DNA from: Candidatus Babeliales bacterium
Lineage (GTDB): Bacteria > Babelota > Babeliae > Babelales > JANWKD01
DNA length: 64,000 nucleotides
Assembly: GCA_963722255.1 (NCBI GenBank)
Contig: CAVRJO010000002.1
Location: 160,001 to 224,000 of the forward strand
Reading direction: 5' to 3'
The translations under genes were made by a program, and so were the position numbers. Below, piece by piece: positions 5,737 through 55,445 of this stretch; the first letter of the stretch is position 1, and each line of letters starts with the position of its first letter. The notes beneath the pieces were generated by a model that saw only the letters and a list, made by a program, of their open reading frames with translations, had not been told where the DNA came from and searched no databases.

Positions 5737-5865
5737 GTCCAGCCTTCGTTTATCCGGGTCTTCAGACTCGGCAAACTTCGGCGGACAGCCTACTTCAATT
5801 TTCTATTAATATATTTCAATCCATTTGAAAATGGTGTAGCCAGCCGAAGCCTTGGCGTAGGCTGG
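5737..5865 (-). repeat. tRNA 3' trailer element after tRNA-Leu(TAG)
   Basis: Transcript reads CCAGC-CUACG-CCAAGG-CUUCG-GCUGG, plus a second CTTCG hairpin unit in the opposite orientation. Confidence 0.7.
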
Positions 5866-5949
5866 TGCAAGAGAAGGGACTCGAACCCCCACTCCCTTTC
5901 GGGAACTGGATCCTAAGTCCAGCGCGTCTACCAATTCCGCCACTCTTGC
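5863..5949 (-). tRNA. tRNA-Leu(TAG)
   Basis: GCAAGAGTGGCGGAATTGGTAGACGCGCTGGACTTAGGATCCAG...GGTTCGAGTCCCTTCTCTTGCACCA; long variable arm, encoded CCA. Confidence 0.97.
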
Positions 5950-6009
5950 GTAATTCATTTCAAAGATTCGTTCCTACTTCGCTCCTTCGAGCTACAGGCT
6001 TTTCAAGTA

Positions 6010-6146
6010 GTCCATTCTTCGCTTTTAGCGTAAAACTTCGAAGTCTTATAAAGCTACGAAGGACAATCTTCGCTCCTTTTGTTGGCGTCAGCCAATCGTA
6101 GCCGTAGGTCCACTTCGTAGTAGCAACCCACGTAGGCGAAGATTGG
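6010..6146 (-). repeat. tRNA 3' trailer element after tRNA-Lys
   Basis: Clearly homologous to 55236-55371; CTTCG/CTACG hairpins. Confidence 0.8.
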
Positions 6147-6219
6147 TGGGCCGCATTGGAATCGAACCAATAACCTGCAGATTAAGAGTCTGTCGCTCTA
6201 CCAATTGAGCTAGCAGCCC
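6144..6219 (-). tRNA. tRNA-Lys(CTT)
   Basis: GGGCTGCTAGCTCAATTGGTAGAGCGACAGACTCTTAATCTGC...GGTTCGATTCCAATGCGGCCCACCA. Confidence 0.96.
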
Positions 6220-6290
6220 TCAACAAAAAATTTCAAAGCTTTCATAAACCACTACAAAAGTGTACCATATCGTAAAATAAAAAAAAGAGT

Positions 6291-6875
6291 TTAAACCGTT
6301 TTTATTTCATTTTCTTTTTTTTGAGCCATTTGCTCAACAACAAGAATAAACTTATCGGTAATTTTTTGTAAAACATCAGCAAGACGACGTCCATGATCCT
6401 CTGATATCTTTTTACTTTTTTCAGTATCTCTTACAAGATTATGAAAATCTTTTCGAACGTTTCTAATCGAAATACGTGCTTCTTCCAGCTTTTTATGTAA
6501 AATTTTTACTAATTCATCTCGTCGAGATGTAGATATTTCCGGAAGCCGAAGACGTATTAAATTTCCATCATTAAAAGGAGTTATTCCCAAATCAGAATTA
6601 GAAATTGCTTTTTCAATTTCAGGAATCAACGATTTGTCCCATGGCTCAATAACTAACATACGAGCTTCGGGCGCGGAAATAAGCGCAATTTCTTTTAATC
6701 CACGCAAGGTATCATAACAGTTTACCTTTATACTTTCCACTAAAGCCGGATGTGCTCTACCCGTTCTAATCGTTATTAATTCACGTTCAAAATGCTTAAC
6801 TGCTTTATCCATTTCGCTTTGTAAGGCAGTCTCAAACTCTTTAATATTACTGTCAGTTAATTTTAATTCTATCAT
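6291..6875 (-). CDS. frr: Ribosome recycling factor
   Basis: IRTGRAHP, IEPWDKS, IEKAISNSDLGITP and ARISIRNVRKD motifs; downstream of pyrH. Confidence 0.97.
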   Translation of the reverse strand: MIELKLTDSNIKEFETALQSEMDKAVKHFERELITIRTGRAHPALVESIKVNCYDTLRGLKEIALISAPEARMLVIEPWDKSLIPEIEKAISNSDLGITPFNDGNLIRLRLPEISTSRRDELVKILHKKLEEARISIRNVRKDFHNLVRDTEKSKKISEDHGRRLADVLQKITDKFILVVEQMAQKKENEIKTV

Positions 6876-6906
6876 ATGCCCATAATCCTCAATCGTTATA
6901 GTAGTA

Positions 6907-7620
6907 CTAAATATTTTCTACAATAGTTCCAAAATGCATATTTGTTGCAGCTTCAATAAGTGCATTATCCTTAAAAATATTAAAAACACGAATTTTCATT
7001 CCTGTATCTTTTGCTAATGCAAATGCCGTAGCATCAAGAATTTTTAAATTTTGCGCTAAAGCGTCTTGATAGCTTATTTGCTTTAATAAATGCGCATCAC
7101 TCACTTGTCGAGGATCAGCATCAAAAATACCGTCAACATTGGTTCCTTTCCAAACACAGTCAGCACCAATTTGTAAACCACGCACAATTGCTGTTGTATC
7201 AGTACTAAAAAACGGATTCCCCGTCCCACCAGCAAAGATAAGATAATCTCCACGATCAATGGCTTTTTTTATATTTTGCGCAGATGTTGCAATGCCAATT
7301 TCTGTTGAGGCCATTGCTGAAAATAAGGTTGTTGATAAACCTACTTGTTCAAAAAGGTCTTTTATAATCAATCCATTCATCAAGGTGGCAACCATACCAA
7401 CTTGATGCCCAACGGCAGGCGAAAGACCAAGCTGAACACCTTGTTTATTGCCTCGAAAAAAATTTCCGCCACCAATAACAATACCAAAATGATGCGTAGA
7501 CTGTAACTGAATCATTTGCTGAGCAATGTTTTTAACGAGAGATCCATCGAGCCTGCCCATCTGATTATTCTTAAGCAGTTCCCCTGTAAGTTTTAATAAA
7601 ATAATTTGTTTTGACTTCAT
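6907..7620 (-). CDS. pyrH: UMP kinase
   Basis: LLKLTGE, VIGGGNFFRG and GGTGNPFFSTDT motifs; tsf-pyrH-frr synteny. Confidence 0.96.
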   Translation of the reverse strand: MKSKQIILLKLTGELLKNNQMGRLDGSLVKNIAQQMIQLQSTHHFGIVIGGGNFFRGNKQGVQLGLSPAVGHQVGMVATLMNGLIIKDLFEQVGLSTTLFSAMASTEIGIATSAQNIKKAIDRGDYLIFAGGTGNPFFSTDTTAIVRGLQIGADCVWKGTNVDGIFDADPRQVSDAHLLKQISYQDALAQNLKILDATAFALAKDTGMKIRVFNIFKDNALIEAATNMHFGTIVENI

Positions 7621-7646
7621 ATGATCTCAAGAGCTCACTGCTATGT

Positions 7647-8243
7647 TTAACTACCAATTTCAAAACGAGCAAAACGCTTGATTTTGATATTTTCACCCAA
7701 TTTGGCGATAAGATCTTTCAAGACATCATCAATGGTCATTTTATCATTTTTAACAAAAGGTTGTTGCATTAAGCAAATTTCTGTATATAATTTTGAGATT
7801 TTACCCTCAAGAATCTGTTCTACGATCTTTTCAGGCTTACCGGATGCAGCCAGTTGTTCTCTAAAAATTGAACGTTCTTTTTCAAGAAATGCTGAATCAA
7901 CCTCTTCAGGAGAAACATACTGAGGTTTCATCGCAGCAATGTGTAAACATATATCAGCAGCAAATTGCTTTAATGCATCGGTACGAGCAACAAAATCAGT
8001 TTCGCAATTAATCTCTAAAAGAACCCCAATTCGACTTCCGGGATGGATATAGGCATGTACAAGACCTTCAATGGTAACATTTCCAGATCTTTTAGCTGCA
8101 ATGGCCGCACCTTTTTTGCGCAAAAGTTCGATTGCTTTTTCAATATCGCCATTACTTTCTGTAAGAGCCTTTTTACAATCCATCATTCCTACGCCTGTTT
8201 TATCGCGTAGTTGCTGGATTAATTCCATCGTTATTGTTGACAT
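7647..8243 (-). CDS. tsf: Elongation factor Ts (short form)
   Basis: LRDKTGVGMMDCKKAL and EINCETDFVA motifs. Confidence 0.97.
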   Translation of the reverse strand: MSTITMELIQQLRDKTGVGMMDCKKALTESNGDIEKAIELLRKKGAAIAAKRSGNVTIEGLVHAYIHPGSRIGVLLEINCETDFVARTDALKQFAADICLHIAAMKPQYVSPEEVDSAFLEKERSIFREQLAASGKPEKIVEQILEGKISKLYTEICLMQQPFVKNDKMTIDDVLKDLIAKLGENIKIKRFARFEIGS

Positions 8244-8324
8244 AAGAAACTCCTAAAAATTATCATTAATAAATTTTCTATAGTTTCTAGTTTGCCAAAA
8301 CTATTGTATTTATCAATATTAAGG

Positions 8325-9230
8325 TTAGTAAGACAGAAGTGCCTGAAGCTTAGAACAATCGGCTTCAATTCTTTTAATATCACCCGGTCTGACTGGTTGA
8401 AATATAATCTCTTGATTATACTGTGGAAATTCATGCTGAAGCTTATGAACCACCTCTAAAAGAGTAACACTTTTGCCGGATGCTACATTAACTATTTCAC
8501 CGGAGACTTTCTCAGCTGACAACATACCAACAGCCATATTTGCTTCAACTACCGTATGAACCGACACAAAATCGCGGCTTTGCAAACCATCGCCATAGAG
8601 TATAATCGGTTTATTATGCCTCATATTATAGTTAAATCGAGCAATTGCTGCAGCATAAGCTCCTAATGCATCCTGACGTTCTCCATAAACATTAAAATAT
8701 CTCAAACAAACCGTCTCAAGATTAAAAAAAGTTGTATAATTTTTACACAACTCTTCACCTATTTTTTTTGAAACTCCGTAAATTGAAGTAGGATTACAGG
8801 GAAGATTTTCTGTGCATCGCCCCTCCCGCTCTCCGTAGACTGCTGATGAGGATGAAAAAACAAATCGTTTAACCTTATGACTTAAGGCCGCCTGCAAAAG
8901 AGTATAGGTTCCTTGAACATTCACCGTATAGGAATATAACGGATCTTCCATTGATTGAGGAACTGAGGTTTGAGCTGCGCAATGAAAAACTATATGTTGG
9001 TTTTGTAATGCACGATTACACGTTTGCCTATCGGTTATTGAACCCCCAATAAGCGTTATTCTATCAGCAACCGAAGCAAGATTTGCTAGAGTCCCTGTTG
9101 AAAAATCATCAAGCACCGTTACAAGTGCGCCAGCAGCAATTAAAGCTTCAACCAGATGTGAGCCAATAAATCCTGCACCACCGGTCACCAGAACCTTACA
9201 ATTGGTATATGATGAAGAGAAATGATTCAT
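8325..9230 (-). CDS. NAD-dependent nucleotide-sugar epimerase/dehydratase
   Basis: VLVTGGAGFIGSHL, SSSAVYG, YGVSK (YxxxK), LRYFNVYG and GDGLQSRDFV motifs. Confidence 0.93.
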   Translation of the reverse strand: MNHFSSSYTNCKVLVTGGAGFIGSHLVEALIAAGALVTVLDDFSTGTLANLASVADRITLIGGSITDRQTCNRALQNQHIVFHCAAQTSVPQSMEDPLYSYTVNVQGTYTLLQAALSHKVKRFVFSSSSAVYGEREGRCTENLPCNPTSIYGVSKKIGEELCKNYTTFFNLETVCLRYFNVYGERQDALGAYAAAIARFNYNMRHNKPIILYGDGLQSRDFVSVHTVVEANMAVGMLSAEKVSGEIVNVASGKSVTLLEVVHKLQHEFPQYNQEIIFQPVRPGDIKRIEADCSKLQALLSY

Positions 9231-10588
9231 GATAACTCCTTGTGATTACTATATTCGGGCATTGAAACAAAATAGTCCTTTTTTGCGGGCACAACAACAA
9301 GTTCTTCTGCAACTTTTTTACCATCTAATACTGCTTCTTGCATACTTGAATATTTCCATGCACCGTATCTTCCAATAGAATGCACATCCTCCTGATGCAA
9401 TCTGCCAAGCAACTTAGAAAGATTTTTTTCTCGCCAAAAATCGTATATTACGTATGCATGCGGTATTTCTATTATTTTCTCAGTCATGATGTCAGATTCA
9501 TTGATAGTAAAAAGTCTCTTAGTTAACTGCAAAGCTTCTTTCAAGGTTCGATCTTTATAGCTTTTCGATTTTTTTATAGAAGAAAATTCTCCATATAAAG
9601 AGCTACATCCTTGTGGCACTGTTGCTTGAGAAAAATTATGAGGGAACCCAATTCTATAAAAGGGATACTTTGATTCAGGAAAATATATCCAGTGTTTATC
9701 AGAAAGGTCAGCTCGGTTAACGCCAATATTGAAATTAACGACTGAATTACACAAAAGATTTTGGCTTTGTTGCTTTAAGGCGCATGAAGATTTTTCTCGT
9801 AACCGATTTAATAAATGATCTAAAGGAATAGTTGAAATCAAGCTATCATATTTTTCATATTCTCCATTTGAAAAAATTACGACTTTGGATCTAAGATCTA
9901 TAGTTTCAACCTCATACCCCTTTTTGATAGGATTTTGTAATGTTTGAGCTATTTTATCAACCCAGAAAAAAATTCCACCCTGTTTTGGATAATAAAAATG
10001 GGCATTATAGCCAACACCTACTTGTCGTGCAGGATCTAAAACTGCTCCTTGAATCATTTGAGTAAGCGAAGTTGATGGTACAAAGCGGCCCGTCCAGGAT
10101 GAAGTTATTTTTTTAATATCATACGCAAATATCTTTTTTTGATAAGGGAAAAAAAAGTGCTGCGCAATTCCTTTGCCAAAATATGACAATGCCCATTCAT
10201 AAAATGAGGCTTTCGGTTTTGTTTTTTTTCGAGCAACAAAACCTTCAATGCATTCGGCAATCACATGAGGCGGCAGCCCATACAAATTGATTTGAAAAGG
10301 ATAATGTGAATAAACATCATGCGAATAGATAAACGAACGTCTATGGACACTTTCAAAGTTTTCAAAACCGACAACATTAGTAATCAATGATTGAAAATAT
10401 CCATCATTAACGTGTAATAAATGGCCCGTGTAATCAAAGGTAAATCCATCTTGAATGATTGTCCTGCACAATCCTCCAATGGTCTCATCTCGTTCAAATA
10501 TTTTGTAATCAAAAAAACCTTTTTTTTCTAAATGATAAGCGGTTGATATTCCTGTTAGCCCCGCTCCAAGTATTACTATTTTTGCCAT
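9227..10588 (-). CDS. FAD-dependent oxidoreductase (HemY/UDP-galactopyranose mutase-like)
   Basis: ILGAGLTG, GGLCRT..DGFTFDYTGH and GRYGAWKY motifs; overlaps the epimerase start (ATGA). Confidence 0.85.
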   Translation of the reverse strand: MAKIVILGAGLTGISTAYHLEKKGFFDYKIFERDETIGGLCRTIIQDGFTFDYTGHLLHVNDGYFQSLITNVVGFENFESVHRRSFIYSHDVYSHYPFQINLYGLPPHVIAECIEGFVARKKTKPKASFYEWALSYFGKGIAQHFFFPYQKKIFAYDIKKITSSWTGRFVPSTSLTQMIQGAVLDPARQVGVGYNAHFYYPKQGGIFFWVDKIAQTLQNPIKKGYEVETIDLRSKVVIFSNGEYEKYDSLISTIPLDHLLNRLREKSSCALKQQSQNLLCNSVVNFNIGVNRADLSDKHWIYFPESKYPFYRIGFPHNFSQATVPQGCSSLYGEFSSIKKSKSYKDRTLKEALQLTKRLFTINESDIMTEKIIEIPHAYVIYDFWREKNLSKLLGRLHQEDVHSIGRYGAWKYSSMQEAVLDGKKVAEELVVVPAKKDYFVSMPEYSNHKELS

Positions 10589-10780
10589 CTACTCCTTTCA
10601 ATGCTTCATTGCTTTTGTGTGGGCTGGCATTATTTATAAAACGAAAGAATATAAATGTCTAGAAAAAAGTCCAATTCTATAGTTCCAATAGATTTATAGA
10701 AGTAGCACTAATTTTATTGCATAAGAAAAAACTAATTTAGTATCATTTTTTTATAATTACTTTTGGTCAAAGGAGTTTTA

Positions 10781-11671
10781 ATGAAAAAGCTTATTATACT
10801 ACTTATTTTTTTTCATATGTCTCTCGAAGCATATAATGCAGGTATACTTCCTTATACAAAAATTAAAGGCAAAATTTACTTCTTGTTGGGCAGAGAAGCT
10901 GGCGGAAGTTCACGTGGTACATGGGCAGATTTTGGCGGAAAAGGAAAAGGATATGAGTCTACAAAGGAAACCGCAATGCGTGAATTTACAGAGGAAACAA
11001 AAGCTGCATTTGCTCAATTTATCGATCCCAATGTAAAAGACTATAAAAGAGCAAAACAATTAAGCAACCAATATATTTCTCCAAGAATGTCACAGCCGAT
11101 TAATAATCCTGGACCAAAAGTATTTTATACCATGTATCTTGCAGAAGTAGATTATATTTCACCGGATGATATTAAAAAAGGAATCTATAGAGATAAGGAA
11201 AAAGATGCATTTGAATGGGTGGATGCTAATGAATTTTCAATACAGTTAAGCCGCAAAACTGCCTATCTTCAAGATTATTATAACTCATTACAAACCAAAC
11301 AAACTACACGGTTTGCCCCATCATTTGGTGATAAAAAAATCCGTCGACCATTTGCAACCTACTTTGTTGATCCTAGAACAAATGCACAGATTAGAAGAAT
11401 CATAGGCCTTCCAAGTCACGGAGCTCCTATAGAAGAAGGAGGCTGGATAAAGCCTGGAAAGGAAGAAGAAGAAGGGTTTTGGGAAGAAGCATACAAAGAA
11501 CCTTACGAAGAAGAAGAATGGATCGTAACGCCAGTTAAAACAACCCCCAAACCTCCATCAGGAAAATTGCCATCAAGAAGCCATGATTACTTAATTCGGT
11601 CATTAAAGAAAACTGCAAAAAAATTACGTAAGCTGAAAGCATTATTGCCTTCTCAAAGGCGTGCATGGTAA
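10781..11671 (+). CDS. Secreted Nudix hydrolase
   Basis: Signal peptide from the ATG at 10781 (AGGAG upstream); Nudix box FGGKGKGYESTKETAMREFTEET. Confidence 0.85.
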   Translation: MKKLIILLIFFHMSLEAYNAGILPYTKIKGKIYFLLGREAGGSSRGTWADFGGKGKGYESTKETAMREFTEETKAAFAQFIDPNVKDYKRAKQLSNQYISPRMSQPINNPGPKVFYTMYLAEVDYISPDDIKKGIYRDKEKDAFEWVDANEFSIQLSRKTAYLQDYYNSLQTKQTTRFAPSFGDKKIRRPFATYFVDPRTNAQIRRIIGLPSHGAPIEEGGWIKPGKEEEEGFWEEAYKEPYEEEEWIVTPVKTTPKPPSGKLPSRSHDYLIRSLKKTAKKLRKLKALLPSQRRAW

Positions 11672-11726
11672 TATCGTATTTACATATTTTCTAGAGATAT
11701 CATAAAAAAACTGCTATATTTAGAAT

Positions 11727-12794
11727 ATGAATATAGCAGTTTTAGTTTCAGGCGGCGTCGATAGTTCCGTAGCATTACGCCTCTTGAAAGATCAAGGACA
11801 TTCAGTCACCGCTTTTTATCTGAAAATCTGGCTTGAAGATGAACTTTCATTTTTGGGCACCTGCCCTTGGCAGGAAGATTTACGTTATGTAGAAGCTGTT
11901 TGCAAACAAGCAAATGTACCTCTTGAGATTGTCTCATTACAAAAAGAGTATTGGGATCGCGTTGTCTCTTATACCATTGCTCAAGTAAAAGCAGGATTTA
12001 CTCCTAATCCCGATATTTTGTGCAACCAGCAAGTAAAATTTGGCAGCTTTTATGCAAAAATAGATGCCTCATTTGATGCAGTTGCCACCGGCCATTATGC
12101 CCAACTTCTCACCGTTAACGGTAAACGAGAATTACATTGTGCTCCTGATCCTATAAAGGATCAAACCTATTTTTTGTCCTATTTGAACCAAGATCAAATA
12201 AAACGAGCTCTTTTCCCCATTGGCCATCTTCAAAAGTCTCAAGTACGAGAAGTTGCTCAATTCTATGATCTGCCTAATAAAGATCGAAAAGATAGCCAAG
12301 GAATATGTTTTTTGGGAAAACTAAAATTCGATCAGTTCCTTAACTACCATTTGGGAGAAAATCCTGGTCCATTGATAGAAATTGAAACCGGGAAGCAATG
12401 GGGAACACACAAAGGTTTCTGGTACTATACCATTGGGCAACGCCAAGGAATCGGTTTAGCCGGTGGTCCATGGTATGTTACTCATAAAAATCCTGAAGAA
12501 AATATTGTGTATATTTCACGCTCCTATTATTCTGCTGAAAAACAACGAAACAGCTTTACCATTGGTAACTGCCACTGGATTTCAGGAGTAGCTCCAGAAT
12601 CTTCCGAACTTTCCGTAAAATTACGGCATGGTCAACATACGCATAATTGTATTTTAGAAAATGCCCAAACTACCAATGCTCTGGTTACACTTAAAGACCG
12701 CGATCAGGGAATTGCTCCCGGACAATTTGCTGTTTTTTATGAGGGGACCAAATGTTTAGGCGCAGGTATTATTAAAGACCATTCTTCTCCATAA
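11727..12794 (+). CDS. mnmA: tRNA 2-thiouridine(34) synthase
   Basis: SGGVDSS, TPNPDILCN, ATGHY, KDQTYFL, DSQGICF and YTIGQRQG motifs. Confidence 0.97.
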   Translation: MNIAVLVSGGVDSSVALRLLKDQGHSVTAFYLKIWLEDELSFLGTCPWQEDLRYVEAVCKQANVPLEIVSLQKEYWDRVVSYTIAQVKAGFTPNPDILCNQQVKFGSFYAKIDASFDAVATGHYAQLLTVNGKRELHCAPDPIKDQTYFLSYLNQDQIKRALFPIGHLQKSQVREVAQFYDLPNKDRKDSQGICFLGKLKFDQFLNYHLGENPGPLIEIETGKQWGTHKGFWYYTIGQRQGIGLAGGPWYVTHKNPEENIVYISRSYYSAEKQRNSFTIGNCHWISGVAPESSELSVKLRHGQHTHNCILENAQTTNALVTLKDRDQGIAPGQFAVFYEGTKCLGAGIIKDHSSP

Positions 12795-12907
12795 CTCCGA
12801 TAATGCCATAAGGTATTAAATTCAGATTGAAATTATAAATATTTCCTGTATACTGAGATATTAGTAACTATTTATTATTAACAATCTAACCTAAAAAATG
12901 GAGTTTT

Positions 12908-14434: not shown

Positions 14435-14439
14435 ATTCT

Positions 14440-14470
14440 CAATTAGAAATTATTGTATAATTTCTAATTG
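14440..14470. terminator. Hairpin after the WD40 gene
   Basis: caattagaaatta...taatttctaattg inverted repeat right after the stop codon; AT-rich, so weak. Confidence 0.35.
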
Positions 14471-14654
14471 TTGAGTATTGTGGACTATTTTCAATCTGTT
14501 ATACTTAAGAGCATATAATTAATCCATCAAGTAAAGGAATGCTCATGAAAACGGTCTCTTGAGCTTGATTTAAAACACAATACAGTATTTAAATAAAGTA
14601 GTAGAGGAGCCTCTTTTTTGTTAATCTTAGGTCAAATAACAATTAATAAGCAGA

Positions 14655-15311
14655 ATGAAATTAATGTGTATAAATTTATTCTGCCGTAACAATAACTCGG
14701 GATCATACGTGGATTATACTGCAAATTCAAATTCAAACCAATGGCGTATTACTATACCAACCCTCTTTACATTGGCACGTATTTTTCTTACGCCTGTAAT
14801 TGTCTACTCTATGGTTCAGCAATATTGGCAACAGGCCTTTTATCTTTTTTTAATTGCAGCGGTAAGCGATGTCATTGATGGGGCATTAGCGCGATTATGC
14901 AATGCTAAAACATTTTTGGGTGGATGCCTTGATGCTCTTGCTGATAAATTCTTATTGTTATCATGCTTTGCAACCTTGGCTTTTATACAAACCCCTCATT
15001 TTATTATTCCACGTTGGTTTGTAATCATAGCGTTGCTCAAAGAGTGTATACTTATTGCCGGTTCTTATATCATATTTAAAATGGCTGGGGCGGTCGAAAT
15101 TAAGCCAACAGTTTTAGGAAAAGCTACGACGTTTTTACAGATCTGTTTTATTATCTGGTTTTTCTTTTGTTATTTTTTTCACTGGTTCCCCTTAAAGACC
15201 TATGGACTGATGTTAGGAATATTGCCTACCTTACTTGTTGCATCATTACTTCAATATATCTATATTGGTCTTTGTTTTGTTCAAGAAAAAAAAGGAAACG
15301 GTCATGAATAA
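14655..15311 (+). CDS. CDP-alcohol phosphatidyltransferase family protein
   Basis: TIPTLFTLARI and SDVIDGALAR...GGCLDALADK motif; true start may be downstream. Confidence 0.9.
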   Translation: MKLMCINLFCRNNNSGSYVDYTANSNSNQWRITIPTLFTLARIFLTPVIVYSMVQQYWQQAFYLFLIAAVSDVIDGALARLCNAKTFLGGCLDALADKFLLLSCFATLAFIQTPHFIIPRWFVIIALLKECILIAGSYIIFKMAGAVEIKPTVLGKATTFLQICFIIWFFFCYFFHWFPLKTYGLMLGILPTLLVASLLQYIYIGLCFVQEKKGNGHE

Positions 15312-15705: not shown

Positions 15706-15805
15706 AATTGTTTTTCATTACTTCATTTTAATTTCGCCATTTAAATCAATACTTTTTGTGCTATACTAAAAAAGCTTATTAACCATTACACTGAAAGGAT
15801 TTTTT

Positions 15806-16369: not shown

Positions 16370-16381
16370 TAAAAGAATACT

Positions 16382-17083: not shown

Positions 17084-17092
17084 TCTATTTTT

Positions 17093-17120
17093 TTAGGAAA
17101 CTCCTTGAGGAGTTTCCTAA
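17093..17120. terminator. Intrinsic terminator-like hairpin
   Basis: ttaggaaactcc-ttga-ggagtttcctaa perfect inverted repeat after the stop codon. Confidence 0.65.
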
Positions 17121-30539: not shown

Positions 30540-30588
30540 AGTATATTAAAAACCATCTTAACGGGCCGTGCCAGGTATTTCCTTAACA

Positions 30589-30693
30589 TTGCCCTACTGC
30601 GCCAAGGCTACGAAGGGCATACTTCACTATTAAATCCATTTGCCATTCCTTTAAAAAACTGGCTTGCCATACGAAGCTTCACGCGAAGTATGG
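30589..30693 (-). repeat. tRNA 3' trailer element after tRNA-Met
   Basis: Homologous to 32456-32563; transcript CCAUA-CUUCG-CGUGAAG-CUUCG-UAUGG. Confidence 0.8.
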
Positions 30694-30767
30694 TGGCGAC
30701 GCAGGGACTCGAACCCCGGACCTACGGATTATGATTCCGCCGCTCTAACCAGCTGAGCTACGTCGCC
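30691..30767 (-). tRNA. tRNA-Met(CAT), elongator type
   Basis: GGCGACGTAGCTCAGCTGGTTAGAGCGGCGGAATCATAATCCGT...GGTTCGAGTCCCTGCGTCGCCACCA; paired 1:72. Confidence 0.93.
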
Positions 30768-32364: not shown

Positions 32365-32455
32365 ATTGATTTTTCCTTTACCTAAAAAATATATCCACTG
32401 CTACTCATGAAACTTTCCCACAAAAATAATAATATCGGTCCAGCCATTTCCTTGA

Positions 32456-32563
32456 TTGCCCTACTCTGCCAAGACTACGAAGGGCATACTTCGCTATTTT
32501 TCAATCTATTTTGTTATTCCTTAAAATAATTGGCCTGCCATACGAAGCTTTAGCGAAGTATGG
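32456..32563 (-). repeat. tRNA 3' trailer element after tRNA-Leu(GAG)
   Basis: Transcript CCAUA-CUUCG-CUAAAG-CUUCG-UAUGG; 12-bp long-range inverted repeat catacttcgcta/tagcgaagtatg. Confidence 0.8.
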
Positions 32564-32647
32564 TGCGGAAGAGGGGACTCGAACCCCTACAGGATTTCTC
32601 CCACAGCCCCCTCAAAGCTGCGTGTCTGCCAATTTCACCACTTCCGC
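32561..32647 (-). tRNA. tRNA-Leu(GAG)
   Basis: GCGGAAGTGGTGAAATTGGCAGACACGCAGCTTTGAGGGGGCTG...GGTTCGAGTCCCCTCTTCCGCACCA. Confidence 0.96.
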
Positions 32648-33089: not shown

Positions 33090-33971
33090 TTAAATCATAG
33101 CGGCTCCAAGTTTATAAATTTGTGAAGCTATAAAACTTTCGAATAATTCTTTTTTAGATGGAATAATTTTTTTTGCGAAAATAGCGTCTGGTGCGTGATA
33201 ATTAAGCTTTGAATGATAACGTCGTGTATTATAAAAAACAATGTAACTTGCAAGCGCATCTCTTACCTGTTGAACTGTATCAAAGCTATGCAAATGTATC
33301 ATCTCATATTTTATCGTACGCCAAAGCCTCTCAATATAAACATTATCTGCCCATCTTCCTTTACCATCCATACTTATTTGAATTCCATATTGTTGCACTA
33401 ATTCAACCCACAGAGCACTGGTAAATTGACATCCTTGGTCGCTATTAACAATTTCTGGAATACCATGTTGCAAAGCACTATTGAACGCCTCTATGCATAA
33501 CGCTGTATCAAGAGAAATTGACAATTTCCATCCCATGATTTTTCGACTAAAAACATCAATTAAGCAAACCAAATATACAAAACCACCCCGTATTTTTATA
33601 TAGGTTATATCTACTTGCCAAACCTGATTTGGTCGATTAATAAGCAACCCACGCAATAAATAAGGAAATACTTTGTGCCCCTGATTTCGTATGGTTGTTT
33701 TTTTGCGAGGGTAAATGGCCTGGATGCCCGCTATCTTAAGCAACATAAAAACTTTTTTATGATTAACCAAAAAACCATTTTCTCTTAAAGCTACTGTCAT
33801 GCGCCGATAGCCATAGGAAGGCGTTTCTTGATAAATTTCACGTAGCTCATTCATAATAATTGCATCATTATTTTTTTGAGGTTTAGGCTTGTAATACATC
33901 GATCCTCTCGATACATCTAAAAGTTCACATTTTCTTTTAAAGTCTATTGCTTCATTTACACACTCAACCAT
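33090..33971 (-). CDS. IS3 transposase OrfB (DDE integrase core)
   Basis: YGYRRM, PNQVWQVDITYI, IDVFSR, NSDQGCQFTS and DNVYIERLWRTIKYE motifs. Confidence 0.95.
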   Translation of the reverse strand: MVECVNEAIDFKRKCELLDVSRGSMYYKPKPQKNNDAIIMNELREIYQETPSYGYRRMTVALRENGFLVNHKKVFMLLKIAGIQAIYPRKKTTIRNQGHKVFPYLLRGLLINRPNQVWQVDITYIKIRGGFVYLVCLIDVFSRKIMGWKLSISLDTALCIEAFNSALQHGIPEIVNSDQGCQFTSALWVELVQQYGIQISMDGKGRWADNVYIERLWRTIKYEMIHLHSFDTVQQVRDALASYIVFYNTRRYHSKLNYHAPDAIFAKKIIPSKKELFESFIASQIYKLGAAMI

Positions 33972-33991
33972 TTCCTTACGCTGCTTTAAAT

Positions 33992-34267
33992 CTATCGATT
34001 GAGCGAGCGTTCTAAAAAATCACGCTCTGCCGTTATTTGACCAATTACTCGATAAAGCCTATCAATTTCCTCTTGTTGGTCCTTTTCTTGTTTCCCCTCA
34101 AAAAGGTTGCTCATATTTTCTTCAGCATGTCTTTTCCAGATAGAGATTTGTGCAGGAGCAATGCTATGTTCCTGACTTAGTTCGTTTAAAGTTTTTTGTT
34201 CTCTAATAGCATCTATAGCTACTTTTGCTTTGAATGAACTACTATGTTTTTTATATCTTCTTGCCAT
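33992..34267 (-). CDS. IS3 transposase OrfA (HTH)
   Basis: MARRYKKHSSSFKAKVAIDA...ISIWK...LYRVIGQITAERDFL. Confidence 0.93.
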   Translation of the reverse strand: MARRYKKHSSSFKAKVAIDAIREQKTLNELSQEHSIAPAQISIWKRHAEENMSNLFEGKQEKDQQEEIDRLYRVIGQITAERDFLERSLNR

Positions 34268-34639
34268 AAAAATTCCCCGATAATAATGTTCACTTTCATG
34301 TTCATTAAAAACTAACACATTTTTAATTTTATCGTGTCAAGTTTCTGGGGTTCATTATATACAAGCTCCAATTGCTCCTACCACAAAAGCATTGTCCTTT
34401 ATTTTAGTACGATCAAAATACAGGCAATATAGTCCGGCGAACGTAAATAGAGAATTATCAACAACTGTTTTTGATAATGCATGCCCTATTTTTGAAACCT
34501 TTGCGCCCAAACCTTCATTCATTGTAAAAGAAGTTGAAACTACACAAAATAGAGCTACCAATACTATTGTACAAAACTTTTTGTTCATATATACCTTTCG
34601 TTTATTTGTATTTTAAAAGCAATTTTTTTAATTTTAATA

Positions 34640-43493: not shown

Positions 43494-43498
43494 TACTT

Positions 43499-48819: not shown

Positions 48820-49263
48820 TTATATTCTTTCGATCCGTTTATTATATCTGTTCATAATTCGGGCCATAAATATTAAATTAACAATCCAATGCACATATAA
48901 AAGAATATAATTTATACCCGACATACGATAATAATCAGCGTACCATACATAAAACCAGATATTACCTATTATCAACACCATCAATGTTCTAAATATTTTT
49001 TTGAAAAGCACAGGATCGGGCGAATCATCTAACCATACTAAGTTATATTGTGGTGCATATAAATCGGGAAATAAAAACATAGTGCAATAAAAAAAAACAC
49101 CGCTAGCGTATATAATCGTACATACAATAATACTTAATGGCATTCCCAATCTTACATAAAGAGGGAAATTATAATGGTACCATGCTTGAACAGTAAAGAA
49201 ATAAAGAAGCGGAAATATTTCATGCTTAAATTCTGACCATCGAGCTTCATAAAAATTAAACAT
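48820..49263 (-). CDS. Multi-TM membrane protein, paralog A (candidate immunity protein)
   Basis: About four aromatic-rich hydrophobic segments; aligns end to end with 49291-49728 (RW..FK.E.F, VRLG.PLS, WLDD.P, WY.D.YRM). Confidence 0.75.
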   Translation of the reverse strand: MFNFYEARWSEFKHEIFPLLYFFTVQAWYHYNFPLYVRLGMPLSIIVCTIIYASGVFFYCTMFLFPDLYAPQYNLVWLDDSPDPVLFKKIFRTLMVLIIGNIWFYVWYADYYRMSGINYILLYVHWIVNLIFMARIMNRYNKRIERI

Positions 49264-49290
49264 CGTGTTTGTACCTTTCTTTAATAATGG

Positions 49291-49728
49291 CTATTTTATC
49301 CTATTATTATAACTGTCTAAAGCATTAGTCATCAGCATAAAAGCAATAACACAGTGAACATAAGAAATAGCATAAAATATATCTGGCATACGGTAAAAAT
49401 CTATATACCAGAAATAAAATAATCCTAGATGAAATACTAATATCATAATTATTTTAAATATTTCTTTTAAAAGCAACGAATTTGGTGCATCATCGAGCCA
49501 TTCTAAATTAATTCGTGGTACATATTTTTCAGGAAACACAAATATCAAAAAACAGAGAAAAATACCTACAATGCTTAAACTTGTACTGACAATAGTGCTT
49601 AAAGGAGCTCCTAACCTTACAAAAATCGGACAATTAAAACTCCACCAAATCTGAAGAAAGGAAAGAAATAGAATCGAAAATAGCTCTTGTTTAAATTGGT
49701 CCCAACGACCTTCAAATATATTCATCAT
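49291..49728 (-). CDS. Multi-TM membrane protein, paralog B (candidate immunity protein)
   Basis: Tandem paralog of 48820-49263, 27 bp apart. Confidence 0.75.
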   Translation of the reverse strand: MMNIFEGRWDQFKQELFSILFLSFLQIWWSFNCPIFVRLGAPLSTIVSTSLSIVGIFLCFLIFVFPEKYVPRINLEWLDDAPNSLLLKEIFKIIMILVFHLGLFYFWYIDFYRMPDIFYAISYVHCVIAFMLMTNALDSYNNRIK

Positions 49729-49927
49729 GAGCCTTTTTTATATCCTATTCTTTATATCGCAAGTATCCTACCTCCAACAATTTATTAGGCTATTTCTTTA
49801 CTGACAGTAAAGAGGGTACCCATTAATTAAGACATATTTTTAATAATATATACCAAATTAGAAATGAAATAGAAATATAAGAAAATGTTCCTTCTAAATC
49901 ATAATAACTATATATTTCTCAAGTTAA

Positions 49928-50477
49928 TTAAACTGGTCCAGTTATAGTCCCACCAATAACAGCTGTACCAATAGCCACTACATTACTTGCGGATTCTATT
50001 GGGCCGGCAAGAGACATCATTAGTGCCAAAATAGCTGAATATACAAACGATCCCATTGGAAGTGTAACTACGAATATTGTTCCATATGCAACAGTATAAA
50101 CGGCAACTTTCCTACCCAAAAGCCAATAGTTGCTCCCAAAACACCACCGCCAAAGCCGCGGTTTTAGCTGTCAAAGAAAACTCACCATCGCTCATTTGCT
50201 TAACCGATAAATATCCAACTTTTTGAAACTTCTTCAATGTCTTTTTATCGGCCTTACGCAACAATGGATCAACAAAGTAGTTTTTTACATCATACTGCTC
50301 ATCATTCTGCATAACATGAAAGCCACCTTGATCATGAAACACTTCAATGTTACCTAAACTTTGGGAAGCCATCAAGGATGATTGTTTAATTTTAATACAT
50401 GAATCCTGTTCCATTGCACCAACAAAAGAAACCGTTGAAGAAATCAATAATAAGCTTGCCATAATAAATTTTTGCAT
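49928..50477 (-). CDS. Secreted RGxGG precursor 2 (frameshifted in this sequence)
   Basis: Adding one base near 50160 and one near 50110 gives ...FSLTAK.RGFGG-GVLGATIGFWVGKVAVY...GGTITGPV; pro-domain homologous to 50602-51174. Confidence 0.75.
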
Positions 50478-50537
50478 AATAATCCTAATTTATAAAAAAA
50501 ATTTTAAAAACAAATAACGTAAACTCTTTTATAAAAA

Positions 50538-50566
50538 ATATTTCTACATCGCCCCTCTCCTTTTTT
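50538..50566 (-). promoter_or_regulatory. Conserved upstream motif of precursor 2
   Basis: atatttctacatcgcccctctccttttt also occurs at 51240-51267, at a similar distance from the precursor 1 start. Confidence 0.55.
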
Positions 50567-50601
50567 ACCCTAATAACTGAAATTTATTTAATAACCCATT
50601 G

Positions 50602-51174
50602 TTAACAAGACGGGATAATCGCACCGATAATTCCCATACCTATTGAAGCCACTTCAACGATAACAAGTGTTGCTGCAGCCGCAACTCCCGGCGTATTACT
50701 AATAGCAGTCGCAACAACTTCTGACCCGGTAGCTGCCTGAGTTGCAATCATTACCGCACAACGACCGCCTTCTTCCCCAGTTGCTTGATTTATAGTTGTT
50801 CCAATAAACTTTGTAGCACCATAAAGAATCCCTGCCAAAACCGGGCCGCCGCCCATTCCTCGCACTTTAGATCTAAGGACAAACTCATCATTATCCAGGC
50901 GCTTGATTTCTACATACCCAGCCTTTTGAAATTTTTTGAGTGTTTTTTTGGATGCATTTCTTAATAAAGAATCAACAAAATCGTCTTTTACTTCATAAGG
51001 CGTGCCATTGCGCATAACACAAAATCCATTTTTATTTCTTAAAAGCTTAACATTGCCCAATTGCTCTGAAGCCCTAACTGAAGTCTGTTTAAATTCAAAT
51101 GTTTTTTCCATTGCCACTGCATGAGAAATAATCGAAGATACTAATATTACACTTGCTATAACTAATTTTTGCAT
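50602..51174 (-). CDS. Secreted RGxGG precursor 1
   Basis: Signal peptide ending AVA-MEK; basic pro-domain ending FVLRSKVRGMGG; Gly/Ala/Val/Ile-rich core of about 81 aa. Confidence 0.8.
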   Translation of the reverse strand: MQKLVIASVILVSSIISHAVAMEKTFEFKQTSVRASEQLGNVKLLRNKNGFCVMRNGTPYEVKDDFVDSLLRNASKKTLKKFQKAGYVEIKRLDNDEFVLRSKVRGMGGGPVLAGILYGATKFIGTTINQATGEEGGRCAVMIATQAATGSEVVATAISNTPGVAAAATLVIVEVASIGMGIIGAIIPSC

Positions 51175-51239
51175 TAAAAAATCCTGAATATAAAAAATTT
51201 AAAAACTCAATAATAATCAAACTCCCCTTTTTTAAAAAA

Positions 51240-51267
51240 ATATTTCTACATCGCCCCTCTCCTTTTT
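51240..51267 (-). promoter_or_regulatory. Conserved upstream motif of precursor 1
   Basis: Direct copy of 50538-50566. Confidence 0.55.
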
Positions 51268-51940
51268 GCCCTTAATACCAACAATTTTTCATTTTTACCA
51301 TGTACATTCATTTCAAAGAAACCTCCAATTTCCCCTTAAACCATTTTTAGCAGTCTTCGACCAGTACCATCACAGATCAGAACCCATTGTGCATGAAAAT
51401 ATGGCTCTTATTGAGAAGTTTCCCAAATTGATTTTTACGTCAACATTAAATTACGTGTGAAATACATGGTTTTTTTGATTTTGAATGAAGACATTTTTAA
51501 AAAATTTTTTTTGTCGCCAAAACTGTGACCGATGCAAAAATTTTAAAGCAACATGTTCTTGACATCGATTTTGTAAAAAGTGTTTTATTAATGGGCTAAA
51601 AGTAATAAGGCAACAAAAATTGTTGTTTGAGCCTACCATTAAAAAAGCAACAAGAAGCGCAATGAGGAGCGTATATGATAATTAATTTAAAAAGGAAACA
51701 AAGACAACTACTATTTTCGATCTAAGTACAAAACATTTTCAAAATAGTTCTTAAGAATAGAACGATGAGGGCTAAAAATTTCTTCCGGCAAGTTCGCTCT
51801 GTTAAAAAATCTTGCAGCCAACTTTAATATTTTTGGTATTCACAAGCGAACTTTCAGCATAAGATCAAAATTTTTTCTAAAATTTTAAGTTAAGAAGGAT
51901 ATAGACAACCTTAATTGCGCGCTTCAAGCACACCTAAAGA

Positions 51941-52354
51941 TTATTGAATAGGAGTAAGAATTTTTATCATTAAAGCATAATAGCTTGAAATATTTGGATA
52001 AATATCTCTTACCTGAGCAGCATTGTAATTATGCGTTGTCTTATTTCTATCTTCCAACATTGCCAAAAGCACAAACCCTTCCGATTCCGTACATAATTCT
52101 TTTTCTACGCACATACGAAAAACTGAACGAGGACTATTTACATCTTCAATATTAAATTTTTTTTCAAAATATAATTTAAGAAATTTCCAAAAACTTTCAT
52201 AGCAATATTCAAACCGTTGTATGGTAGAATCTTGTGCTGCTAAAATAAGTCTGTTATTACCAAGATCAACGGCCTCTTCTTCTGCAATAAATGAATCTGC
52301 TAAAGTTGCTAAAGCATTCGTTAATAAACTTCGGCTTAATGTTAATTTTTCCAT
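51941..52354 (-). CDS. HEPN-domain toxin (HI0074 family)
   Basis: DSTIQRFEYCYESFWK, SPRSVFR and RNKTTHNY (Rx4H) motifs. Confidence 0.92.
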   Translation of the reverse strand: MEKLTLSRSLLTNALATLADSFIAEEEAVDLGNNRLILAAQDSTIQRFEYCYESFWKFLKLYFEKKFNIEDVNSPRSVFRMCVEKELCTESEGFVLLAMLEDRNKTTHNYNAAQVRDIYPNISSYYALMIKILTPIQ

Positions 52355-52653
52355 TCAATTCCTTCTTCTTGAATTGTTTTTCTAAATTCTTCCGGAATTG
52401 CATGCATATCAACTAAATCAATAAAAACTGGAATAACTAAATGCTCTAACGTAACCCGTGCTCTTTCCATCTCTCCAAATGCAATTTGCTTGCCATAATC
52501 AACTGCAATATCAATATCGGCACCGGGTCTATTGGTTCCTCGTGCTCGTGAGCCGAAAAGATAAATTTTTGCACCGGGAAAATGATAGTCCATAGCTCGC
52601 ATTATCATAGTCTTGTAATCCAGATTAATATTTTCTGCCATCGCATTTCTCAA
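52342..52653 (-). CDS. Minimal nucleotidyltransferase (MNT) antitoxin
   Basis: YLFGSRARG...ADIDIAV and FIDLVD motifs; overlaps the HEPN gene. Confidence 0.92.
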   Translation of the reverse strand: MRNAMAENINLDYKTMIMRAMDYHFPGAKIYLFGSRARGTNRPGADIDIAVDYGKQIAFGEMERARVTLEHLVIPVFIDLVDMHAIPEEFRKTIQEEGIEWKN

Positions 52654-52789
52654 ATAGATATAAGTAAATTTTTACATCAAAAATAATAACAAGAACAATA
52701 CACTTTTGTAAAACAATCAAAAAATCTATTTTATAGATTGTAATAAGAAGTTGTTTATAACCATGAACAACTTTTAAAAAACCACACTC

Positions 52790-53992
52790 TTATTTTAAAG
52801 TCAATTTCATACAGGTTGTACCAGGATAGGAAAAGTTTAAAATACTTTTATAATTCCATCCATGATCAATCATTTTTCGAGCACCCCATTGGCAAATTCC
52901 CAAATGATGGCCATATCCCTTACCTTCAATAACTATTTTTTTAAGCTTTTTTTTGAATAGAATAACAAAAGCTTTTTATTTTAGTGGTTAAAGAATAAAA
53001 CTGTTTTCCTGTTAATTTTGTTATTCCTTGAGCCCAGGATATGGTAACCTCTTCAACAGCACCGGCCTTGTCTTTTGCAGCATTTATTGACGTAATACCA
53101 TGGATCATAAAGCCTTTTTTCTGTAATAATTTTTCAAACTCGATGCAGTCAAGCTCACATTTCCATTCATAAATTTTACATGGCTTGCAAAAATCACATA
53201 CTTTAGTCCGAGCTAAATAAGGCGATTTTTTAAAATCTACGCCGGTCAAATGTGCAGGAATAATGCCCCCACAACAACTATCAAACATCGCATGAATCGG
53301 TTTCTTATTATAGGTAACAATAAGACCTTAGTTTGCTCTACTGCTTTTTCTAGAACTTCACTTTCGTGAAATCCATTATAGGTCTGATGAATATTAGTTT
53401 TTTTTATATGATACGGATTTTTATTACCACTTTCCAATACCTTTGCAATTACGTAAGTTCGCGAAGCGATGGCAAAAACTTTATTAACCTCAAGAGGCCA
53501 ACCGGGCCAACTTTCTGATCGTAAAACAGAATAAACATAATCTTCGAGTTCAAGCTGATTGATAAGCATACAGGAATCATTTTGAATAAGACAAATAAAA
53601 GAACCTTGATATACATTATTAGAAAAGCCCAGATGCCCTTCAATAGGCTCAATTCTTATGCTCTTTTCTTCCAAGCGTTGGCCATTAATATACCAATTTC
53701 CCTGCTTCATACAAAGCATGGTAGTAGTATGCTTAGAATATCGTTTTTTTCTATGATTGGTAGCATCATAAATCATTACACCTTTTTGCGCGTATATAGA
53801 CCACTGAGTTGAACCTTTTTTTTCATCAAGTAGTACACGTACCTTAAACTGCTTTGGGTTTTCTACAAAAGGTCCTGGATTTTCTTGCTCTTTTATAAGC
53901 GTCGACATTTTAACAGATCGCGCATCACACAAAGCGCCGAATAGACAGTTAAAAATGCATAAACAGTAGACAAGATTATAAAGAAATGTCAT
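52790..53992 (-). CDS. SpoIID/LytB-domain protein (two apparent frameshifts)
   Basis: INQLELEDYVYSVLRSE, AIASRTY, HQTYNG, SCCGG, SPYL and GKGYGHHLGICQWGA motifs spread over three reading-frame segments. Confidence 0.85.
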
Positions 53993-54494
53993 GAGCGGAA
54001 AGAAACTTAATAAATTCTTGAGGAACTTTCACTTTTTTATCAATACCTGCATTAGCCAATTCATCAGCTAAACCATTATACTCCCGCAAAATATGACAAA
54101 AAGAATATTTTATTTGATCAAGAAGAACAAATGCTAAATCAAAAAGTTTTTTTAACTCTATGCTTTTAATTTTATATTCACCCTTCATATGCTTCACTAA
54201 CAGTTCAGAATCGGAAAAAACATATAACGTATCATCTTTTCCTATGTGCTTTTTAGCATAAAAGATGCCCAGTAATAAAGCCATATATTCAGCTTGGTTA
54301 TTTGTTTTAATACCTAAATAAAATCCTTTTTTATAGATTTGATCCTCATCTTTTGAAAGATAAATACCCGCTCCCGCTTGCCCTGGATTTTTGCGTGAAG
54401 CTCCATCGATAAAAAGTTTCCATGCGATTCCGCCTTTTTTAGTAGTGAGATGAGCCGGGATACATTCTTCAAAAAAATTGAGCTGTTTCATCAT
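53976..54494 (-). CDS. rnhA: Ribonuclease HI family protein
   Basis: FIDGASRKNPGQAGAG, TNNQAEYMALL, SDSELLV and HILREYNGLADELAN motifs. Confidence 0.93.
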   Translation of the reverse strand: MMKQLNFFEECIPAHLTTKKGGIAWKLFIDGASRKNPGQAGAGIYLSKDEDQIYKKGFYLGIKTNNQAEYMALLLGIFYAKKHIGKDDTLYVFSDSELLVKHMKGEYKIKSIELKKLFDLAFVLLDQIKYSFCHILREYNGLADELANAGIDKKVKVPQEFIKFLSAHDISL

Positions 54495-55196
54495 TATTCC
54501 ATATATAGAAAACGATAGCATTCTTTACACTGTAACAATGCATGTTTTTTTAACCGAGCAATATCTTGTTGTGTTATAGAATAAAAGCAGGCAGAACAAC
54601 AGTTATTAATGACAGGAACCACCGGGTTAGGAACAGACTTTCTCATAACGGCATACTTTTCAAGCCATTCTTGAGGAATACCTACCTCTAATTCTGCTCT
54701 TTGTATATGTCGTTCAGAGATTTTTTGAATAAGATCTTTTTTTTGTGTTACCGAAGTAACGATTAAGCTTTCTAAATCTACGAGCTCGCTTTTCCAATTC
54801 TGCTTTAGTTATAAGATAACTACGAGTAGTGGATTCAAGCACATTCCATGCCTCTAAAAGCCCTTCCTCTAATTCGTATTGCTTTTTTTTCAATGCATCG
54901 ATTTCTTGAGAAGCAGATTGATATTCGCGCTGATTGACAATACGCTCAAAAAGATCTCTTTTTATCTTAATTTTTGCATCGAGATCTTTCATCTCAAACT
55001 CTTTTTCATCAACCTTTTTTTTGCACGATGCAACAAGCATTTTAGCATGCTCAAGCTGATCCTCGACACGAAAAACCTCATTTTGAAATTCATTAATATC
55101 TTTTTCTAGCCGATCATTATCACGCTCTAAAGCATTTGTTGTTTGATCAAATGCCACAAGATTAACAAATTTTTGAAAAGGAAACTCAGTCATCAA
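54494..55196 (-). CDS. Coiled-coil protein with C4 zinc ribbon (DUF164-like), frameshifted
   Basis: Coiled coil with REYQSASQEI; the alternative frame gives PQEWLEKY...PVVPVINNCCSACFY...LQCKECYRFLY; adjacent to rnhA. Confidence 0.85.
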
Positions 55197-55235
55197 GGTT
55201 TTCTACCTCCGCTTTGCTTATTATTTTAGCATTTA

Positions 55236-55371
55236 GTCCATTCTTCGCTTTTAGAGAAAAACATAGAAGTATACTAAAGCTACGAAGGACAACCTTCTTC
55301 CTTTTACTGCCAATAGCCAACCGTAGCCATAGGTCTACTTCATAGTAATAACCTTCGTAGGCGAAGATTGG
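55236..55371 (-). repeat. tRNA 3' trailer element after tRNA-Ile2
   Basis: Homologous to 6010-6146. Confidence 0.8.
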
Positions 55372-55445
55372 TGGGCCCACCAGGACTTGAACCTGGGACC
55401 TCTCGGTTATGAGCCGATTGCTCTGACCAACTGAGCTATGGGCCC
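55369..55445 (-). tRNA. tRNA with CAT anticodon, probably tRNA-Ile2 (lysidine)
   Basis: GGGCCCATAGCTCAGTTGGTCAGAGCAATCGGCTCATAACCGA...GGTTCAAGTCCTGGTGGGCCCACCA; acceptor stem typical of Ile2. Confidence 0.9.

Follow-up and report, generated by a model that had tools for sequence, protein, structure and literature searches.

What are the structured segments that directly follow each of the five tRNA genes in a 64,000-nucleotide stretch of the genome of a Candidatus Babeliales bacterium (assembly GCA_963722255.1, contig CAVRJO010000002.1)? This stretch, here called the window, corresponds to positions 160001-224000 of contig C2 of the source genome (G000; 1.62 Mb, 34% GC, with contigs C1 and C2), which we compared with the relatives G001, G003 and G004. 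An initial annotation of the window had offered two readings of these tRNA trailers, a mobile element resembling a doublet of repetitive extragenic palindromes (REP) that targets tRNA CCA ends, or a switch in tRNA 3’ processing or termination. The first of these is supported by a strict restriction to the target, a linked GIY-YIG gene, orthologous sites that are empty and spread within genomes, and the five trailers are probably gene-less, non-autonomous copies of a selfish, CCA-targeted GIY-YIG element that leaves the tRNA gene intact. The trailer unit, or arm, inserts after CCA, itself ends in CCA, stacks at this terminal CCA, forms subfamilies within genomes, differs among close relatives, has covarying pairings and is tied to one clade of nucleases.

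Anatomy of the five trailers

ARAGORN predicts five tRNA genes in the window, every one on the minus strand, and Rfam at its gathering thresholds detects four of them. Directly after all five we find the layout that had been described, CCA-NN-CTWCG-hairpin-CTWCG-N’N’-TGG, with every coordinate confirmed and with NN/N’N’ pairs of GC/GC at Leu-TAG, AT/AT at Lys, TA/TA at both Met and Leu-GAG, and AT/GT at Ile2. A second complement of the CCA-proximal segment begins 68-75 nt from the first C of CCA, in the places where it had been claimed (5786-5793, 6064-6071, 30618-30625, 32485-32492 and 55290-55297), and the hairpin unit said to follow it in the opposite orientation is indeed an inverted hairpin. 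Below, A denotes CCA-NN-CTWCG, B denotes CTWCG-N’N’-TGG, C denotes CGWAG-N’N’-TG, and D is an inverted copy of the A-B unit. An additional terminal motif absent from the initial annotation, TGGC-n2-4-RCCA (E), is present in four of the five window units and is decayed at Ile2. These parts allow alternative pairings, of A with either B or C, and of the TGG of B with either the tRNA CCA or the CCA of E.

Two details of the initial annotation required revision. It had recognized two subfamilies, and we distinguish three in the window, Leu-TAG being a separate GC type. The G-U pairs that it reported at Ile2 are present, but they do not provide two independent signs of strand, as a single C-to-T substitution in the left arm accounts for both. 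The features are as follows.

5863..5949, minus strand: tRNA-Leu(TAG), host target gene, encoded CCA at 5865-5863 (ARAGORN, Rfam)
5737..5862, minus strand: GC-type trailer of Leu-TAG; A (GC-CTACG) from 5862, B 5849-5840, E (TGGC..ACCA) 5842-5832, C 5793-5786, D hairpin 5786-5737
6144..6219, minus strand: tRNA-Lys(CTT), host target gene (ARAGORN, Rfam)
6010..6143, minus strand: AT-type trailer of Lys; B 6101-6092, E 6094-6083, C 6071-6064, D 6064-6010
30691..30767, minus strand: tRNA-Met(CAT), host target gene, probably the elongator from its acceptor stem
30591..30690, minus strand: TA-type trailer of Met; B 30676-30667, E 30669-30660, C 30625-30618, D 30618-30591
30564..30581, minus strand: probable remnant of an older short unit of H type (described below), pushed downstream of the Met trailer, from comparison by eye
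32561..32647, minus strand: tRNA-Leu(GAG), host target gene (ARAGORN)
32458..32560, minus strand: TA-type trailer of Leu-GAG; B 32547-32538, E 32540-32531, C 32492-32485, D 32485-32458
32436..32450, minus strand: probable remnant of an older H-type unit after the Leu-GAG trailer; G001 has an intact H unit there
55369..55445, minus strand: tRNA with a CAT anticodon, host target, read as Ile2 from an acceptor stem like that of tRNA-Ile(GAT)
55236..55368, minus strand: AT-type trailer of Ile2; B 55326-55317, E decayed, C 55297-55290, D 55290-55236

At 5968-6000, in the gap that separates tRNA-Leu(TAG) from the Lys trailer, the window also holds an additional, decayed hairpin whose cores read CGAAG, perhaps an older D unit, and an IS3-family element lies upstream of tRNA-Leu(GAG) (33090-34318).

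Restriction to tRNA and tmRNA ends

Across the source genome a trailer lies behind 20 of the 36 tRNA genes, 14 being of the CTWCG type and six of a short CATTTC/GAAATG type (H), and both tmRNA 3’ ends also carry one. When complete units were sought at the 37,571 CCA sites of this genome we obtained 29 matches; 25 are at tRNA, tmRNA or displaced ends, the remaining four are the opposite strand of units counted already, and none lies at any other place. Counting copies at tRNA genes against copies elsewhere, as the initial annotation had suggested, thus assigns each of the 25 distinct complete units to the CCA of an RNA gene or to a displaced end. The four displaced ends were joined to this count only after inspection: the best supported has 10 bases in common with the end of tRNA-Arg(TCT), 9.5 kb upstream, and the other three have 6. 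A recombinase-like open reading frame (ORF), which may encode a serine recombinase judging from its motif, stands behind each of tRNA-Arg(TCT) and tRNA-Arg(CCT); none was found behind tRNA-Glu. The reversed pattern, used as a control in the same genome, gave no matches, versus 16 for the real one.

No described Rfam family matches the trailers. At gathering thresholds only tRNA and tmRNA models pass in the window, in loci L001-L005 and in 20 related loci, a search by E-value likewise yielded no family, and the highest-scoring other family at any window trailer is throat-1, with 20.6 bits versus 124.4. The G-rich replication strand holds 15 of the 20 occupied tRNA genes and 8 of the 16 free ones, which are small numbers.

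The two tmRNA 3’ ends are 2.1 kb apart (G000:C1:795090-797400), each with an arm; ARAGORN makes no tmRNA prediction anywhere in this genome. No recognizable arm was seen at tRNA-Cys, Ile(GAT), Pro(TGG), Trp or Val(GAC) in G000, G001, G003 or G004. A first stem rule, which scored 14 of 36 tRNAs with a null of 6.4% and a doubtful match at tRNA-Ile(GAT), proved too strict and noisy and was superseded.

Covariation of the pairings

Covariation was assessed by motif parsing and shuffles, as variable inserts defeat the single alignment that a covariance model needs. To avoid circularity the copies were chosen on their 5’ side only (T-arm, CCA, NN and CTWCG), giving 121 metagenome matches, 110 of them with enough sequence. 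B was found in 32 of the 110, with 28 exact complements (shuffle mean 4.7, maximum 13), and C in 46, with 36 exact complements (shuffle mean 8.1, maximum 17). Among 54 copies from relatives, B was exact in 21 of 37 (shuffle 5.0) and C in 22 of 27 (shuffle 6.1). The NN covariation first noticed in the window therefore stands far above shuffles, although because the copies are related these counts are not probabilities. The triplets of target, guide and unit end behave similarly: among 98 units they read CCA/TGG/CCA in 64, CAC/GTG/CAC in four (at three loci) and CCC/GGG/CCC in two, so that where the host end is not CCA, the guide and end triplets shift along with it. At loci L078, L138, L142, L146, L164 and L185 the arm has the order A-C-D-B instead of A-B-C-D and retains the same pairings.

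A GIY-YIG gene is linked to the arm

A search for a nuclease gene linked to the arm identified one of the GIY-YIG family (PF01541). The GIY-YIG ORFs of the source genome comprise one long and five short ones; four of the five short ORFs, which encode SLX1-like proteins of 80 aa, lie directly behind an arm, and the fifth has a different inverted repeat on its flanks. All window trailers resemble gene-carrying arms elsewhere in this genome, at 79-89% identity. The Lys and Ile2 trailers are identical at 119/134 and 110/133 positions to the arm at C2:577519, in front of the GIY-YIG gene at C2:577881, the Met and Leu-GAG trailers at 91/107 and 94/107 to a tRNA-Asp arm that precedes such a gene, and the Leu-TAG trailer at 99/126 to the arm at C1:460629, in front of the gene at C1:460793. 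The other candidate enzyme, a HUH/RAYT protein, did not hold up: by eye, none of the 11 Y1_Tnp matches in the source genome lies at an arm cluster. Tyrosine integrases gave two matches only, neither near an arm.

Homologous proteins were matched in 43 of 61 genomes of the order. We took the 30 top-scoring loci, one per genome, and as controls 30 other small GIY-YIG loci from the same genomes, most of which have inverted hairpins of their own. A tRNA or tmRNA end lies within 800 nt upstream on the same strand in 25/30 homologues versus 0/30 controls, and an A-B arm upstream in 22/30 versus 1/30. The 5’ arm pattern occurs in 44 of the 61 genomes (the reversed control matched once), and an arm is present in 36 of the 38 genomes that have the nuclease, versus 8 of the 23 in which none was detected, bearing in mind that kin are not independent. 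Among 61 metagenome copies the gene is downstream on the same strand in seven and on the other strand in none. A scan of viral sequences gave mostly chance matches, only the rows with the 16-nt register being informative.

The closest titled homologue of the linked protein is in a Candidatus Babeliales record (83%). A GTDB-wide search of genome contigs, with a single protein as query, showed that 14 of the 32 homologues with 800 nt available follow a tRNA or tmRNA end; those so linked include members of the Lentisphaerae, Patescibacteria and Marinimicrobia. In a quick tree (91 rows and 84 columns, excluding L075, L077, L079, L084 and rows under 60 aa) the arm-linked proteins form one clade across phyla, with a Shimodaira-Hasegawa-like approximate likelihood ratio (SH-aLRT) of 90, outside both an Ssn-like clade, named from its flanking repeats (SH-aLRT 97), and a UPF0213-like clade (95). 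They retain Y5, Y17, R27, H31 and E63, with the GIY-YIG active-site residues intact. The structure model has a mean predicted local distance difference test score (pLDDT) of 95.6 and is closest to Slx1, and at 80 aa the modelled protein would have no space for a separate DNA-binding domain. A search of the ESM Atlas returned generic GIY-YIG clusters only.

By eye, the more distant homologues at L094, L108, L093, L095, L105, L096 and L102 apparently lie variously within 16S or 23S rRNA genes, after duplicated 5’ parts of tRNAs or in tandem with duplicated 3’ parts of tRNAs; some distant GTDB-wide matches are located within tRNA genes. At L018, L021, L025, L029, L031, L036-L039, L041, L042 and L044 the nuclease gene ends in TGG plus a stop codon; TGGT is the complement of ACCA, and such ends may only reflect a conserved tryptophan.

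Trailers differ between close relatives

We compared all tRNA genes of the three relatives with those of the source genome. In these three relatives trailers occupy 26/36 (two scored on the E motif alone), 20/36 and 19/41 tRNA genes. The orthologue of Leu-TAG is empty in G003 and G004, that of Ile2 in G001, G003 and G004, and that of elongator Met in G001, so close relatives lack a trailer at three of the five window tRNAs; in empty orthologues the next gene can begin within a few bases of CCA. Where orthologous sites are filled, the subtype is usually different. In 64 of 76 comparisons a trailer is closer to its best counterpart in its own genome than to its orthologue, and with the numbers compared being matched the result is 48 versus 27 in the same direction. 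The likeness between short units ends two or three bases past the CCA of E, and at tRNA-Phe and tRNA-Thr of G003 the locally dominant unit ends in GCCA with an older unit directly after it. Of 135 units, six have a new core at an offset of 2 after E, versus 0-1 at other offsets. Very short units of the H type stand at 14 of the 36 tRNA genes of G001.

Proposed mechanism

We propose that the element inserts directly after the CCA with which tRNA and tmRNA genes end. The full element would consist of CCA, then A-hairpin-B-E, an AT-rich spacer, C-D and the 80-aa SLX1-like GIY-YIG gene, and short forms (A-B-E alone or A-B-E-C-D) would be spread in trans by the nuclease. By analogy with the Ssn system discussed below, the nuclease would recognize the hairpin in its single-stranded DNA form. 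Pairing either with the tRNA CCA or with the terminal CCA of the unit, the TGG at the foot of B could mark both cut sites much as in IS200/IS605 elements, and the tRNA 3’ end, folded within a displaced single strand of DNA, might supply the specificity that three bases cannot give. Host repair would then join the ends and complete insertion. The two alternative folds would in that case represent states of a DNA substrate, and C-D could in addition control nuclease expression from the tRNA transcript. The data would be accommodated equally well by nick-primed copying from a filled site via CCA microhomology.

Several points weigh against a CCA-targeted mobile element. GIY-YIG enzymes are hydrolytic and so the strand-transfer step is left unexplained. 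None of the five window copies has a nuclease gene beside it, and three of the four gene-carrying arms of the source genome are at orphan CCAs, whose reading as displaced ends depends on 10, 6 and 6 shared bases only. Eight of the 23 genomes in which the nuclease was not detected still have arms, GTDB-wide only 15 of 39 homologues come after a tRNA or tmRNA end, with distant ones in other layouts, and the B and C motifs were seen in only 32 and 46 of the 110 metagenome matches. Gene conversion among tRNA 3’ regions could also be a source of the similarity within genomes. Movement itself is deduced from comparing sequences, and the right end of the long form is provisional.

A broader idea, which we put forward tentatively and with the chances rather against it, is that these arms represent a separate class of mobile element present in many phyla, in which a triplet at the hairpin foot pairs alternately with the tRNA CCA and the element’s own end. 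Such a class would follow the logic of IS200/IS605 with a non-HUH enzyme, a minimal SLX1-like GIY-YIG nuclease, and would be aimed base-exactly at tRNA and tmRNA 3’ ends and be re-aimable by changing three bases. If the reading as a mobile element is right, many 80-aa GIY-YIG genes that are at present unannotated would gain a function, and the structured trailer at about half of the tRNA genes in this bacterial family would be explained. The element would also add a third small GIY-YIG clade with a hairpin repeat of its own to those of Ssn and the UPF0213-like proteins, and offer a system for testing how a hydrolytic nuclease spreads REP-like DNA, with an enzyme of 80 aa, a substrate of 30-130 nt and a base-exact, harmless target.

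Alternative explanations

The other reading in the initial annotation was a host RNA switch, in which the two folds hide or expose CCA, or a terminator forms from TGGC-nn-GCCA and a T-run. Covariation at three to four positions does show a selected structure, a T-rich stretch follows the end hairpin (E) in 56 of 135 units, and in four of the five window copies the tRNA strand is predicted to fold as RNA with a slightly more favourable energy. However, mismatches in 251 distinct copies (112 parsed for A-B and 135 for A-C) reveal no G-U bias on the tRNA strand: G-T versus A-C mismatches on it number 5:3 in the short A-B stem and 19:33 in the long-range A-C pairing, and among A-B mismatches T-C is the most frequent, corresponding to G-A on the opposite strand. 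A scan found no terminator-like site on the tRNA strand in any window trailer, and trailers lie between co-oriented tRNAs and directly ahead of co-oriented genes. Furthermore, the same tRNAs occur in relatives without trailers, subtypes track the genome rather than the tRNA, and a nuclease gene is tightly linked, all of which make a switch quite improbable. If the element reading is right, covariation alone would be insufficient grounds for annotating such tRNA trailers as regulatory RNAs.

It is also unlikely, if slightly less so, that the trailer is a protective cap, such that the nuclease attacks free CCA ends, a hairpin pairing with CCA immunizes them and the host retains gene-less copies. 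This is compatible with an origin as an element and differs in why copies persist. Both folds pair with CCA or CA, the guide triplet tracks the host end where this is not CCA, and the very short H-type units at 14/36 tRNA genes of G001 would suit such a role, but new units enter occupied CCAs and push old ones downstream, so occupation does not bring full immunity, and 16 of 36 tRNAs are free in a genome with four nuclease genes. Least probable of the three is passive spread, with ordinary REP-like repeats homogenized by gene conversion among the 3’ regions of tRNAs, or carried on islands that integrate at tRNAs, and the GIY-YIG gene only hitch-hiking. Arms are mosaics, their inner hairpin modules are found nested in another repeat family away from tRNAs, and islands with a recombinase-like ORF at the tRNA-Arg genes displace arms; those islands, however, do not bring them. 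Nor does passive spread readily account for the base-exact register after CCA at tmRNA and at tRNAs that share little 3’ sequence, in many phyla, or for the clade-specific gene linkage of 25/30 versus 0/30.

Comparison with known systems

The element was not found described in the literature searched, with subscription papers and supplements, including that of PMC11893778, outside the search; in the available text of bioRxiv 10.64898/2026.10.21.760802 ‘GIY’ has no occurrences. The comparisons that follow likewise draw on the available portions of the cited papers. As inferred here, the mechanism is like those of Ssn/SRM and REP/RAYT, and the element is a member of neither and fails defining tests of both.

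Ssn comprises a single-domain small GIY-YIG gene with NTS/SRM hairpin repeats, for which a likeness to mobile elements has been proposed, and SsnA acts on the folded single strand of its repeat (Chenal et al. 2025, PMC11893778). The two systems have in common a small GIY-YIG gene associated with its own hairpin-repeat family and an abundance of copies that lack the gene (PMC11893778). In contrast, an Ssn gene has repeats on either side and its repeat family is dispersed, whereas the present element is anchored to tRNA/tmRNA CCA ends and its proteins fall outside the Ssn-like clade of our quick tree; the main text of PMC11893778, as available, does not contain ‘tRNA’. The SRM consensus HGTCWY...RNCYNB has no match in the source genome and none at the 30 arm loci, although this strict pattern is insensitive, matching 2/14 Ssn-like controls; a looser pattern required on both sides was found in 10/14 Ssn-like controls and 0/30 arm loci. 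Inverted repeats on both gene flanks were not seen at the arm loci, the arm lying upstream with at most a partial arm in the same orientation downstream.

With REP/BIME/REPIN-RAYT and IS200/IS605 the element shares imperfect hairpins, an inverted doublet and non-autonomous copies (PMC6006769, PMC3733652). IS200/IS605 elements have a short guide at the foot of the hairpin that base-pairs both to the target and to the end of the element itself (PMC6006769). A doublet in the REP/REPIN sense is present, A-B and D being inverted copies of one unit, with 25 units in the source genome. Unlike in those systems, no HUH gene is linked, the triplet guide is 3’ of the hairpin and targeting to tRNA ends is strict. 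The core is CTWCG/CGWAG rather than a terminal GTAG/CGTC tag; CGTAG or CGAAG sits inside the stem, so that some copies contain GTAG, not as a terminal tag. The intergenic dispersal without a gene target that is typical of REP/REPIN sequences is not observed, with 25/25 units at RNA-gene or displaced CCA ends.

Phage T4 SegB, a free-standing GIY-YIG homing endonuclease that targets tRNA genes and spreads its own gene, provides a precedent for an enzyme of this family reading tRNA genes; its target is a T-stem-loop motif, and it cuts a 27-bp double-stranded site, with homing of the allele between phages (PMC2330249). The present protein differs in being an 80-aa catalytic domain only, with structured arms, and the element is found on the 3’ side of CCA at a variety of tRNAs, with copies that lack the gene left behind. 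Among solved structures the best sequence and fold matches are Slx1, At-HIGLE and UPF0213, which in contrast are host repair enzymes or uncharacterized proteins. Relatedness to Slx1 and At-HIGLE suggests, by analogy, that the linked nuclease may cut in a structure-specific manner.

Other repeats

Two further small GIY-YIG clades, seen at G000:C1:725306 (L005) and among control loci L045-L074, have their own inverted hairpin repeat on both sides of the gene, which is of a GTCATC/GTCATT...GATCC type in the Ssn-like clade and of a CCTTCGAC...CTCAGGA type in the UPF0213-like clade. The inner hairpin of the arm also occurs away from tRNAs, at G000:C1:572048 and 735789 and at C2:278937, 460709, 498310 and 507973; in several cases it is nested in a GTCAT-type repeat, and therefore the repeat families exchange modules. 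The window contains a copy of a GTCATTGCGAG-type palindromic repeat at 3152-3210 (C2:163152). Finally, another dispersed repeat family, of a CCGGTAGCTACACGTG... type, is found at G000:C1:249206, 422226, 582524, 676039 and 697589 and at C2:269060 and 507763, one copy lying behind the trailer of tRNA-Ser(TGA).

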